In this document: piece by piece, positions 4,149-7,522 of the stretch
Layout: every line of letters begins with the position of its first letter
How positions within the stretch are numbered: the first letter of the stretch is position 1
NCBI GenBank assembly: GCA_031370645.1
Contig: JANMQV010000026.1
Location: forward strand, 1 to 20,236
Source: Candidatus Eiseniibacteriota bacterium
Lineage (GTDB): Bacteria > Eisenbacteria > RBG-16-71-46 > SZUA-252
DNA: 20,236 bases
Direction of reading: 5' to 3'
Program-made: the position numbers and the translations under genes
Notes under the pieces: model-generated
Database searches by the model: none
Seen by the model: only the letters and a program-made list of their open reading frames with translations
What the model was told of the DNA's origin: nothing

Positions 4149-5570
4149 CTAGCGCACGCCGCGCTCCGCCCTCATCGGACGGAGCGCGAGTTGGCCGCGG
4201 CGGGAAAGGTTGATCGATTGCCCCAGGATGCGAAGGGCCTCCTGCGGCGCATGAAATCCGCTCGAGTTCTCCGCCTCCACGAAGTCGAGATAGAACTGCG
4301 CCTTCCGCTGGAACTGCTGCGCCTCGCGGAACGCTTTCAGTGAATCGCCCGCCGCGCTCGCCGACTTGAGATCGTCCAATAGGTCGAGAAGCGCGTCCAT
4401 CGCCTCGTTCCTCATCGCGTGCACTCGCTCCTGGATCGCCTCAGCCCGCGACTTCAACTCCTCTTCCGGCCAGCGGTGGCAAGTCTGGCAGGCGCGGCTG
4501 ATATTGAGCAGAGGGCTCCGAACGTGGTGATCGCTGATCTTCATGGCGCCGACCCGCGTGTACGGCATGTGGCAGTCGGCGCAGGCGACGCCGGAACGAG
4601 CGTGAATCCCTTGATTCCACATCTCGAATTCAGGGTGCTGCGCCTTCAACACCGGCGCCCCCGTCTCCGCATGTGTCCAGTCCTTCTGTCCGACCGAGTC
4701 GTAGTAGGCGACGATCTGCTCCACCTTCAGGCCGCGGCTCCACGGATAGGTGAGGCGCTTCTCGGGACCTTGGAAGTAGTACTCCACGTGGCACTGACCA
4801 CAGACGAACGAACGCATCTCCTGGCGGGTGGCGGAGGCGTTCACGTCGTAGTTCGACGTCCCCTGGGAGGCCTTGAACGCGCGCATCCCCTCGAGGAACG
4901 CGGGCCGGGTCACACGGAGCGCCATCGATTCCGGATCGTGGCAATCGATGCAGGCGACCGGATGCTTTACTTCTTTCCTCGCCTCCTCGTAGGGGAGCGG
5001 GTTCAGCTTCTCGAAGCCCTTGGTCGGATCCCCGCCGCCCGCGCGCATGTACGGGACGACCATCGAGGCGTGGCAGTGAAGACAGGCCCCGGGTTGCTTG
5101 GCCGCATGCTGGCGTTCCGTGAACATCTGGTCCGCCAGCATGAAGGCGTGACCGCGCTCCTCCCGAAAATCGACCGAGAAGGCGTAGCCCGCCCACATCC
5201 GCTTCAGACGGGGGTCCTCCTCCAATCGCGACTGCGCGACCACCGAGCGCGGATCGGCGTCCGTCGGCGTGCGCGGAACGGCCTCGCTTCCGCCGAATCG
5301 CGTACGGATCTGGTCCACCGTACGGCGATAGCCGTCGTATTGGAGGGGGAAGTTCTTTCCCCAGATCGCGGGGTCCTCCGTCTCCTCGGTCAGCTCGACG
5401 ACGCGGTAGAAGGGGTTTCTCGCTTCCTGCTTCCGCTCGAAGATGTTCACGAGCAGCGCCGTCACGCCGGCGCCGGCCACCGCGGCGGCCACGACGGCGA
5501 TCAGCAGAATGCGGCCACGACCCCGGATCGGAGCAGGTTGTCCGGGACGGGGAGTACGGTTCTCAGTCAC
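4149..5570 (-). CDS. nrfA: Pentaheme cytochrome c nitrite reductase catalytic subunit (ammonia-forming)
   Basis: Five heme motifs (CLHCH, CIDCH, CGQCH, CADCH, CQTCH), plus WAGYAFS, ERGH, CGQCHVEYYF, KAQHPEFE and AENSSGFHAP. N-terminal hydrophobic segment. GTG at 5570 has a GGAGGA RBS and overlaps the nrfH end. Confidence 0.95.
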   Translation of the reverse strand: MTENRTPRPGQPAPIRGRGRILLIAVVAAAVAGAGVTALLVNIFERKQEARNPFYRVVELTEETEDPAIWGKNFPLQYDGYRRTVDQIRTRFGGSEAVPRTPTDADPRSVVAQSRLEEDPRLKRMWAGYAFSVDFREERGHAFMLADQMFTERQHAAKQPGACLHCHASMVVPYMRAGGGDPTKGFEKLNPLPYEEARKEVKHPVACIDCHDPESMALRVTRPAFLEGMRAFKASQGTSNYDVNASATRQEMRSFVCGQCHVEYYFQGPEKRLTYPWSRGLKVEQIVAYYDSVGQKDWTHAETGAPVLKAQHPEFEMWNQGIHARSGVACADCHMPYTRVGAMKISDHHVRSPLLNISRACQTCHRWPEEELKSRAEAIQERVHAMRNEAMDALLDLLDDLKSASAAGDSLKAFREAQQFQRKAQFYLDFVEAENSSGFHAPQEALRILGQSINLSRRGQLALRPMRAERGVR

Positions 5571-6111
5571 GGGGTTCCTCCTGGTCGAAACTTCCGAGCG
5601 GGGCGAAGTCTTCGTGCCCGACGCCATGGTGGCAGCGGATACACGAGATGGGCCCCCGCTTGGAGGTGACTAGTTCATGGGAACCGGACGCGCGCGTGGA
5701 AAAGCGATGTTTGGACGCGCTTCCCGCGTCGATCGCCTCCACGATTTCCTCGTGGCAACGGCGGCACGCCGCCTCCGTCACGGCGCGATTCGCCCGGGTG
5801 ATCCGGATCGGCTCGTGGAACCATCCGGTCGTGAACATGAGCGAGTGGCGAAACCCGTTCGCTGCCTTCACCGCGAATTTCGGAATGAGCGCGTCCGGCG
5901 CGTGACAATCGTTACAGGCGGCCACGGCGCGGTGGCTTCCCCGCGACCACCCCTCGTACTGGGCTTGCATCACGTGGCAGTTGGCGCAAGCCGCCGCGTT
6001 GTGTCCCAGGTACGACGCTCCTTTCGCATAGTAAAACGTGAAGCCGGCCACGCCGATCGTGGCGCCGGCCAAGGCGGCCATCAGCCAGCCCGCCAGGCGC
6101 GTGACTCTCAC
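5563..6111 (-). CDS. nrfH: Tetraheme cytochrome c quinol dehydrogenase, nitrite reductase small subunit
   Basis: N-terminal TM helix, FYYAKGASY, four heme motifs (CANCHVM, CNDCH, CRRCH, CIRCH) and a terminal GVGH. Lies directly upstream of nrfA. The start is uncertain (GTG 6111, ATG 6081 or ATG 6264). Confidence 0.92.
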   Translation of the reverse strand: MRVTRLAGWLMAALAGATIGVAGFTFYYAKGASYLGHNAAACANCHVMQAQYEGWSRGSHRAVAACNDCHAPDALIPKFAVKAANGFRHSLMFTTGWFHEPIRITRANRAVTEAACRRCHEEIVEAIDAGSASKHRFSTRASGSHELVTSKRGPISCIRCHHGVGHEDFAPLGSFDQEEPRD

Positions 6112-6343
6112 GAAGTTCGCCGCCGTGCGAAGATCGCGTCCCAGAAGGGAAGTGCCACGGCGAGGAGCGCCGGGAGAAGGAGCGTCCGAATGAGCGCCCT
6201 CCCGGCGGCGCGGCGAGCCCGATTCATGGGCCGGAGTATGCCCCAGGCCAGGCGGCGGCGTCATCCTATCGTCGTCTGGACAGCGGGGCTGCGGTAGCGC
6301 ATCGTTCCTCGCGGAATCGCCGCGACCGAAACGGGGGAGACTC

Positions 6344-7522
6344 ATGACAACCACACTGATTCTCGGCGGAGGATTCGGCGGACTCACCTGCGCGCGCGCG
6401 CTCCGCGCGGCGCTGCCGCCGGAACACAGGATCATCGTCGTCGACCGGGCGCCTCTCTTCTTGGTCGGCGCCACAAAAACCTGGGTGATGCTCGGGGAGA
6501 AGAGCGCGGAGGAGATCACGCGGCAGCGCGGCACGCTCCTGCCCGCCGGCGTGGAACTAATCCAGGCCGACGTCATGCGAATCGACGCCGCCACGCGCGA
6601 GGCGCAGACGAGCGCAGGCACGATCAGGGGCGACCATCTCGTCATCGCACTCGGAAGCGAGCAGGAGCTCGGTGCCGTGCCGGGACTCGCGGAGTCGGCT
6701 CACTCCTTCTACGGGCTCCTCGACGCCCTCCACCTCCAGGCGGCGCTCGACGCGTTCAAGGGCGGGCGCGTCGTGTTACTCATCCCGCGTGTCCCATTCC
6801 CCTGTCCTCCGGGGCCGTATGAAGGCATGCTCCTGATCCACGACTTGCTGACGCGGCGGGGGATCCGCGAGAAGTGCACGCTCGACGCCTACACGATGGA
6901 GAAGTTGCCGATGGCGACGGCTGGCCCCGCGATGGGAAACGCCGTGGTGGCACTCCTCACGGAGCGATCGATCGGATATCACCCGCTGAAGAAGACGGCG
7001 CGCGTGGAGCCGGCGCGAAAGGCCGTCCGCTTCGAAGATGGGTCGGAGGCGCTTTTCGATCTCCTGATCACCGTGCCGCCGCATCGCGTCCCGCGCGTGG
7101 CGGTGGAGTCGTGGCTCGCCCCGCCCGAGGGGTGGATCCCCGTCGACCCCGCGACGCTCGCCATCAAGTCACCGAACGCCGCGGCGCATGTCTACGCGAT
7201 CGGCGACGTGACGAGCGTGCCGCTTCCCGGCCGTTGGGTTCCAGAGATGCCGCTCGCGCTCCCCAAGGCGGGGGTCATGGCCGCAGCGCAGGGGGAAGTG
7301 GTCGCGGCGAACATCGCGTCGGTGGTGCGAGGGGAAGCGCCGGTCGCTTCGTTCAACGGCACCGGGCACTGCTTCATCGAGATTGGGGGCAAGCGCGCCA
7401 TGAGGGGCGACGGCGACTTCTTCAAGATGCCTCACCCCGAGATGAGCGCGAATCCTCCCGATGAGGCAGCCTACCGGAGCAAGCAGGAGTGGGTCGCGGG
7501 GATGCTCGCGCCGAGACGCTAG
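6344..7522 (+). CDS. Sulfide:quinone oxidoreductase-like flavoprotein (SQR/FCSD family)
   Basis: ILGGGFGG, CPPGPYE (Cys154), AIGDVT, PKAG and GHCFIE (Cys343) match the two-Cys SQR-like pattern. GGGGAGA RBS. No signal peptide. Confidence 0.8.
   Translation: MTTTLILGGGFGGLTCARALRAALPPEHRIIVVDRAPLFLVGATKTWVMLGEKSAEEITRQRGTLLPAGVELIQADVMRIDAATREAQTSAGTIRGDHLVIALGSEQELGAVPGLAESAHSFYGLLDALHLQAALDAFKGGRVVLLIPRVPFPCPPGPYEGMLLIHDLLTRRGIREKCTLDAYTMEKLPMATAGPAMGNAVVALLTERSIGYHPLKKTARVEPARKAVRFEDGSEALFDLLITVPPHRVPRVAVESWLAPPEGWIPVDPATLAIKSPNAAAHVYAIGDVTSVPLPGRWVPEMPLALPKAGVMAAAQGEVVAANIASVVRGEAPVASFNGTGHCFIEIGGKRAMRGDGDFFKMPHPEMSANPPDEAAYRSKQEWVAGMLAPRR

Follow-up and report, generated by a model that had tools for sequence, protein, structure and literature searches.

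The 20,236-base stretch of DNA analysed here, hereafter the window, is a complete contig (JANMQV010000026.1, G000:C233; GC content about 67%) of a 3.0-Mb, 95% complete metagenome-assembled genome, and its proteins have Candidatus Eisenbacteria as their closest named relatives. It carries the genes for the nitrite reductase NrfA and its quinol dehydrogenase NrfH head-to-head with a gene for a flavoprotein, termed SQRL, of the superfamily that includes sulfide:quinone oxidoreductase (SQR) and flavocytochrome c sulfide dehydrogenase (FCSD). The initial annotation of the window read this arrangement as a possible minimal module for sulfide-driven nitrite ammonification. Comparison across genomes leads to a different conclusion: the two came together by a recent rearrangement of the locus in a small group of close relatives, uncultured bacteria of sediments, and do not form a functional module that evolution has conserved. 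Probably, two independent respiratory units were made neighbours by this rearrangement, with the flavoprotein likely to be sulfide-oxidising.

The genes themselves were correctly recognised, as a CxxCH-type nrfHA and an SQR/FCSD-family flavoprotein with both redox cysteines. NrfH oxidises quinol and NrfA reduces nitrite, functions established for both families, and the proposed electron flow from sulfide through quinone to nitrite is possible in the cell. A co-regulated or dedicated module is the part that synteny leaves unsupported: the adjacency is explained by gain or loss of an nrfHA cassette and a deletion beside a stably placed SQRL gene.

Distribution of nrfHA and the SQRL gene

Across 206 Candidatus Eisenbacteria genomes (the unpublished genome G073 is counted among them, without effect on the outcome), an SQR-like match at E ≤ 1e-50 was found in 54 and NrfA at E ≤ 1e-30 in 51. 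Both occur in 16 genomes, close to the 13.4 expected if they were distributed independently (54 x 51 / 206); kin genomes in the set are not independent of one another. The two units adjoin in 4 of these 16, namely the window's genome (G000), G177, G178 and G181, all of genus g1. Their flanks place them apart in 10 others (G180, G102, G106, G199, G202, G078, G115, G133, G156 and G158), and G179 and G198 are undecidable for adjacency, with the genes at contig ends. Genes in the loci were called by open reading frame (ORF) heuristics. Beyond the phylum, NrfA and NrfH were found in none of 80 genome loci (883,586 bases in all) that surround homologues in a wide range of other phyla, and NrfH in one of 46 metagenome loci. 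This locus, L103, is a near-identical metagenome contig, and no other of the 46 is at 83% identity; between its nrfH start and the homologue lie 116 bases.

Elsewhere in the phylum, nrfHA has unrelated neighbours, including genes for a BBE oxidase, an FkbM methyltransferase, an M28 peptidase, a beta-lactamase-like protein, a transposase-like helix-turn-helix (HTH) protein and an aminotransferase. In Eisenbacteria, nrfHA thus behaves as a relocatable two-gene cassette of the CxxCH type. The transposase-like HTH gene (HTH_29/28/23/32; L021:11735-12295, minus strand, in G130) lies 2 kb from nrfHA and fits a variable location of the cassette in the phylum.

Within the genus, the SQRL gene and its upstream region are fixed, and nrfHA is present, absent or elsewhere. 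Gene order in G181 is cold-shock protein (CSP), 1-Cys peroxiredoxin (Prx), nrfA, nrfH, X and SQRL, where X encodes a lipoprotein; the window has the same order with a remnant in place of X, and G177 and G178 have CSP-nrfA-nrfH-SQRL. Prx is a variable-block gene, present in G000 and G181 and not in G177 and G178. The CSP 5ʹ region is joined directly to the SQRL 5ʹ region in G182, G180 has HI0933-X-SQRL with nrfHA on another contig, and G176 has HI0933-SQRL, with NrfA not found in a genome that is 94% complete. In a FastTree phylogeny of 94 homologues (L018, L036 and L083, with less than 80% query coverage, were left out; supports are local SH-like values only), the 4 nrf-linked rows fall inside a 6-row clade with G180 and G182. 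Because G182, which has no nrf genes, is sister to the nrf-bearing G178, the cassette has been gained or lost more than once.

The spacer, gene X and the control region

The distance between the divergent genes, first given as roughly 230 bp, measures 232 bp from the nrfH GTG codon (6111) to the SQRL ATG codon (6344). By comparison with close relatives, this spacer is best described as a decayed X gene plus the region of about 130 bp upstream of the SQRL gene. Full-length X in G181 (L004:7807-8913) encodes a 368-aa lipoprotein that begins MNPERRAPWASLGRRLLLPALLALALASC and ends SAWDAIFARRRAP; it lies between nrfH and SQRL, and its stop codon overlaps the nrfH start. X in G180 is 83% identical, and no Pfam family matches X even at E ≤ 1. 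The window's remnant encodes MNRARRAAGRALIRTLLLPALLAVALPFWDAIFARRRTS followed by a stop, an in-frame fusion of the X signal peptide with the C-terminus of X (the last ~11 residues), and its TGA overlaps the nrfH GTG (GTGA). The remnant is also a candidate leader ORF that may now be translationally coupled to nrfH. The ~130-bp region is conserved in six close genomes, with or without nrfHA beyond it, and is the former X/SQR-like divergent control region; because it belonged to X and the SQRL gene, it is older than the placement of nrfHA.

A simple course of events would account for the present arrangement. In the ancestor of the genus, the SQRL gene would have been divergent from X, as a stable pair. 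The nrfHA cassette would have landed directly downstream of X, a state kept in G181, and would probably have been read from the X promoter. An in-frame internal deletion in X would then have brought nrfH within 232 bp of SQRL in the window lineage, and G177 and G178 would have lost X wholly. Functionally, nrfHA would be self-contained, with NrfH taking electrons from quinol and NrfA reducing nitrite to ammonium in the periplasm. The flavoprotein would most likely oxidise sulfide (or persulfide) on FAD via its Cys154/Cys343 pair and, working from the cytoplasmic side, deliver the electrons to the quinone pool, probably for sulfide detoxification. Nothing found points to dedicated nrfHA-SQRL coupling. 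Both enzymes could share the quinone pool, and any sulfide-to-nitrite electron flow would run through this common pool, independent of gene adjacency.

The same arrangement could also be read as a lineage-specific module, in which a captured nrfHA would be co-regulated with SQRL through a bidirectional region, serving sulfide-driven DNRA (the dissimilatory reduction of nitrate to ammonium) or the protection of NrfA from sulfide. The units are indeed head-to-head across a spacer of 117-232 bp in G000, G177, G178 and L103 (X lies between them in G181), and because the nrfH start abuts the conserved SQRL upstream region in G177, G178 and L103, the nrfHA promoter must lie within that region in these three. 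Furthermore, the run labels give freshwater sediment as the habitat, a setting in which sulfide can encounter nitrite, and sulfide oxidation coupled to nitrate/nitrite ammonification is a known physiology, described for Desulfurivibrio alkaliphilus in the accessible text of PMC5516251. Such a module is nevertheless quite unlikely. Its adjacency is limited to one genus, the closest relatives (G182, G180 and G176) keep SQRL without an adjoining nrfHA, the shared region predates nrfHA, and co-occurrence in the phylum is near expectation.

Moreover, no shared regulator gene, recognisable operator or RNA motif for nrfHA and SQRL was found at the locus. An Rfam scan of 5900-6500 returned nothing at E ≤ 1, sigma-70 and terminator consensus scans gave 0 sites, and the spacer's inverted repeats are weak ones located within the X remnant. 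An upstream motif is present in 6 of 102 loci examined, all from close relatives; it is not claimed as an operator because it is confined to the six closest genomes and may reflect relatedness. A sigma-54-like reading of TGGACAG...CTGC was rejected, as its spacing is off by one and its second element is unconserved. A more elaborate version, equally improbable, would have nrfHA captured behind X and then placed by X decay under SQRL bidirectional control, so that sulfide oxidation and ammonification are switched on together and a sulfide-driven DNRA pathway is caught mid-assembly; the stand-alone clade B enzyme could, in addition, represent a new type of SQR that has one C-terminal helix only. 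Local rearrangement of two independent units remains the preferred explanation.

The SQR-like flavoprotein

SQRL starts MTTTLILGGGFGG, with a Rossmann strand from residue 3 and no signal peptide; no transmembrane segment was found in it. The protein matches Pyr_redox_2 (E 7.1e-15) and the FCSD_central domain. Its FAD-binding Rossmann motif (GxGxxG) is GGGFGG at residues 8-13, of which G8, G10, G12 and G13 are invariant in all 42 aligned family members. Both cysteines that had been assigned to the SQR pattern hold up: Cys154 (in PFPCPPGPYE) and Cys343 (in GHCFIE), together with Glu160 of the CPPxPYE motif, are likewise invariant in 42 of 42, and the two cysteines align with the redox pair of FCSD 5n1t (PFRCPPGPYE) and with both cysteines of human SQOR. 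In the alignment with FCSD 1fcd, Cys154 is matched and the printed alignment stops at query residue 335, before Cys343. No third invariant cysteine was seen among the 42 sequences, and in the family alignment the central domain lacks a second GxGxxG that would serve NAD(P)H.

An AlphaFold (AF2) model of SQRL built on 42 sequences has a pLDDT of 92.6 and is predicted to share its fold, over the full length, with the type I/II enzymes of Aquifex aeolicus (A. aeolicus; 3hyv), A. ferrooxidans (3t2y) and human (SQOR, 6oi5), with the redox cysteine pair aligned (Z 40.9-43.0, rmsd 2.2-2.6 Å, 368-377 residues aligned). Individual VIA-align Z scores are 43.0 for A. ferrooxidans SQR and for human SQOR, 41.7 for FCSD, 40.9 for A. 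aeolicus SQR and 37-38 for NDH-2, and Foldseek TM scores against the top matches are 0.80-0.85. Every top structural or sequence match of SQRL is an SQR or an FCSD.

The protein had been flagged as short, with a limited C-terminus, and this is borne out. In alignment, the model matches residues 1-405 of A. ferrooxidans SQR, whose longest deposited sequence has 437 residues, and residues 2-396 of the 430-residue A. aeolicus SQR; at 20-24% identity to the solved type I/II enzymes, SQRL ends about 30 residues earlier and lacks their second C-terminal amphipathic helix. Against the FCSD flavoprotein, in contrast, model residues 1-391 align to residues 2-401 of a 401-residue chain. The single C-terminal helix of SQRL (374-387) is weakly amphipathic (muH 0.31, mean hydrophobicity -0.10). 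In SQRs, C-terminal amphipathic helices serve as the membrane anchor. A conserved insert, PLPGR(W/Y)xPxxPLxLPKAG (SQRL residues 293-306, window ~7220-7261), is flanked by the GD motif and the PKAG helix; FCSD and human SQOR lack it in pairwise alignments, and it has the lowest model confidence (pLDDT ~58-61).

Among FCSD flavoproteins (FccB; 1fcd, 3vrd and 5n1t), 5n1t is the best single-sequence PDB match of SQRL (E 7.8e-22), and FccB has the same length and an almost identical PF(R/P)CPPGPYE motif. FCSD carries a periplasmic export signal and has an adjacent gene for its cytochrome c subunit. SQRL, by contrast, has no export signal, and no dihaem FccA or other FCSD cytochrome c subunit gene adjoins it, its neighbours being nrfH and a gene for an FG-GAP protein; FCSD identity is therefore disfavoured. 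The nearest curated model is NF049943 (172.9 bits, E 1e-50), a selenoprotein-subtype 'exception' model for type III SQR, whose two-cysteine and FAD architecture is common to SQRL. SQR type labels (I-VI) follow the literature; type III examples are Methylacidiphilum fumariolicum MFUM_v2_0219 and the Caldivirga maquilingensis SQR.

The family of ~392-aa SQR-like flavoproteins is large, with 2597 database matches, and splits into two clades. Placement among SQRs comes from curated HMMs, PDB matches and an unlabelled family tree. The window protein falls in clade B, a separate branch of 23 rows with support 100. Its sister, clade A, numbers 53 rows at ~40% identity; in 43 of these 53, a DsrE-like gene is no more than 1.5 kb away. 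The DsrE-linked cousins score 205-221 bits on NF049943. ArsR or ArsR-rhodanese genes occur in 37 of 80 genome loci. The DsrE-like plus SQR-like operon (e.g., L015:7622-9146 and L016:7950-10151), often with an ArsR or ArsR-rhodanese fusion regulator, is widespread, with Acidobacteriota, Chloroflexota, Nitrospirota, Gemmatimonadota and Proteobacteria among its carriers; it probably serves to sense persulfide and detoxify sulfide. By analogy it matches the TusA/DsrE2 operon that contains the H2S-induced type III SQR of Methylacidiphilum, as far as the available text of PMC10205796 describes it; this DsrE-type context is shared by clade A and not by clade B. Clade B neighbours are heterogeneous (urate-oxidase-N, TrxR-like, XdhC/MobA, Rieske, HAD, TonB receptor, GNAT, MAPEG and sulfatase). 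Within the SQR/FCSD superfamily, the clade of the window flavoprotein is widespread, stands alone and is uncharacterised.

It is conceivable, if rather doubtful, that the flavoprotein is not an SQR and is instead a soluble cytoplasmic protein with the SQR/FCSD fold that acts on a different thiol or persulfide or uses a different electron acceptor, in which case the nrfHA pairing would have no sulfide meaning. The length and C-terminus equal to those of the soluble FCSD flavoprotein would suit such a protein, as would the presence of a weak amphipathic helix only and no transmembrane segment. DsrE, TusA, rhodanese or ArsR neighbours occur in 0 of 23 clade B rows, no DsrE family gene was found in the 95% complete G000 genome, and a 1-Cys Prx lies upstream of more distant cousins in L060, L137 and L138. 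However, sulfide-oxidising enzymes have the same cysteine pair, CPPxPYE motif and Glu160, the central domain has no second GxGxxG for NAD(P)H, the top matches are all SQR or FCSD, and neither a signal peptide nor a cytochrome c partner, as FCSD would need, is present. On these catalytic motifs and the predicted fold, rather than on gene context, a sulfide-oxidising role for clade B is reasonably probable.

Several points tell against the view of two rearranged units with a sulfide-oxidising flavoprotein. The direction of events, insertion as opposed to deletion, is inferred from six genomes. A short divergent intergenic region is common to both units in at least 5 independent assemblies or genomes, and a slight probability attaches to nrfHA-SQRL co-regulation in this sublineage. 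As to the flavoprotein, the modelled fold belongs to the SQR/FCSD group and cannot separate SQR from FCSD, and the NF049943 score is far under the 525-bit cut-off. Association with the membrane and with quinone is uncertain because the last ~30 residues of type I SQRs, with the second amphipathic helix, are absent. Finally, no clade B row has a DsrE partner within 1.5 kb or an ArsR partner, and no conserved neighbour of any kind was seen around clade B genes; sulfur-related context therefore supports sister clade A only.

nrfHA, the remaining genes and known systems

NrfA (492 aa) matches Pfam Cytochrom_C552 (PF02335) with 457.2 bits (E 7.8e-137) and scores 304 against the NCBIfam equivalog model, below its cut-off of 595. 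Its translation has five haem motifs (CLHCH, CIDCH, CGQCH, CADCH and CQTCH), and its best PDB match is the NrfH-dependent NrfA of the D. vulgaris NrfHA complex (2vr0/2j7a; E 1.5e-66). Unlike the solved NrfA enzymes, which have Lys in the first haem motif, the window NrfA has His: a Lys-ligated active-site haem (CxxCK) was not found in it, and because its CLHCH aligns with the active-site CWNCK of 2vr0, it is a member of the CxxCH clade. That clade is already known, so absence of CxxCK does not exclude membership of NrfA; the available text of Saghai et al. 2023 (PMC10716430) describes it as monophyletic and dominant in soils, and the window NrfHA likewise has five haem sites, an NrfH partner and a first-haem CxxCH.

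NrfH (182 aa) starts with GTG at 6111, and homologues with 77-78% identity align from residue 1. It has an N-terminal hydrophobic helix (LAGWLMAALAGATIGVAGFTFYY) and the CxxCH motifs CANCH, CNDCH, CRRCH and CIRCH, and matches TIGR03153 with 137.9 bits, above the cut-off of 134.2 (scored on the longer 5563-6264 reading). A start at the upstream ATG 6264, which would reduce the spacer to ~80 bp, has no support from homologues. The 3ʹ end of nrfH overlaps the annotated nrfA start (ATG 5627) by 65 bases (5563-5627), and alignments with more distant NrfA homologues begin only at residue ~25-38, so nrfA may truly start further downstream than annotated.

Features of the window, by position
Feature	Position	Strand	Basis
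Cu/Zn superoxide dismutase (SOD)	1073-1633	+	
HI0933-like flavoprotein	1606-2892	+	
Cold-shock protein (CSP)	2965-3162	-	
1-Cys peroxiredoxin (Prx), convergent with nrfA	3506-4138	+	AhpC-TSA E 6.8e-32, 1-cysPrx_C
nrfA, pentahaem cytochrome c nitrite reductase, CxxCH clade (His-ligated first haem)	4149-5627	-	PF02335
nrfH, membrane-anchored tetrahaem quinol dehydrogenase	5563-6111	-	TIGR03153
X remnant ORF, 39 codons	6108-6227	-	Translation compared with full-length X in G181
Conserved region 5ʹ of the SQRL gene, ~130 bp	6215-6343		Alignment of close genomes
SQRL, SQR/FCSD superfamily, clade B, 392 aa	6344-7522	+	Pyr_redox_2, FCSD_central
Cys154 codon, first redox-active cysteine	6803-6805	+	
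Cys343 codon, second redox-active cysteine	7370-7372	+	
FG-GAP repeat protein, T9SS sorting tail	7529-9598	-	FG-GAP E 1.9e-46, Por_Secre_tail
PALP enzyme, then ornithine-cyclodeaminase-like (OCD) gene	9715-11713	-	
Second cold-shock gene	11842-12033	-	

The nrfA-nrfH-SQRL junction is real and not an assembly artefact, because contigs of 4 runs from 2 studies bridge it: single contigs span 4935-8000 in X3 and X4 (study P2), 4565-6648 in X5 and 5505-6705 in X7. The G000 genome encodes two COX1-family oxidases, and oxygen is therefore an alternative sink for quinol; cytochrome bd was not found in this 95% complete genome.

Downstream of the SQRL gene, the FG-GAP protein gene is a conserved neighbour within the genus; its product belongs to no redox function. 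The two cold-shock genes have the same orientation, encode proteins that are 91% identical and bracket an 8.7-kb segment (Prx-nrfHA-SQRL-FGGAP-PALP-OCD). In G178, SQRL is followed immediately by the second copy, and FGGAP, PALP and OCD are missing; such repeats may drive rearrangements in the region. A Prx 63-69% identical to that of the window lies directly upstream of a distant (35% identity) SQR-like cousin in L060:6343-8098 and a few hundred bases upstream in L137:2493-4253 and L138:1988-3749; in the window, the same Prx type is on the far side of nrfHA from the SQRL gene. The PALP and OCD pair presumably recalls SbnA/SbnB-type diaminopropionate synthesis and is duplicated in G180. A PALP enzyme recurs near clade B genes (the window, L013 and L024), too sporadically for interpretation.

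Among known systems, D. alkaliphilus has an SQR gene together with NrfA, and sulfide oxidation there drives DNRA. The accessible text of that study (PMC5516251) reports a low sqr transcript level, proposes other enzymes for the sulfide step and describes no sqr-nrf gene linkage.

With a true nrfHA-SQRL module, sulfide-driven nitrite ammonification would have had a compact genetic marker in this uncultured phylum of sediments. The gene adjacency here is instead a recent rearrangement and is unsuitable for inferring coupled sulfur and nitrogen metabolism. Two things remain new at this locus: a clade of SQR-like flavoproteins that stands alone and is uncharacterised, and the relocatable nature of the CxxCH-type nrfHA cassette.

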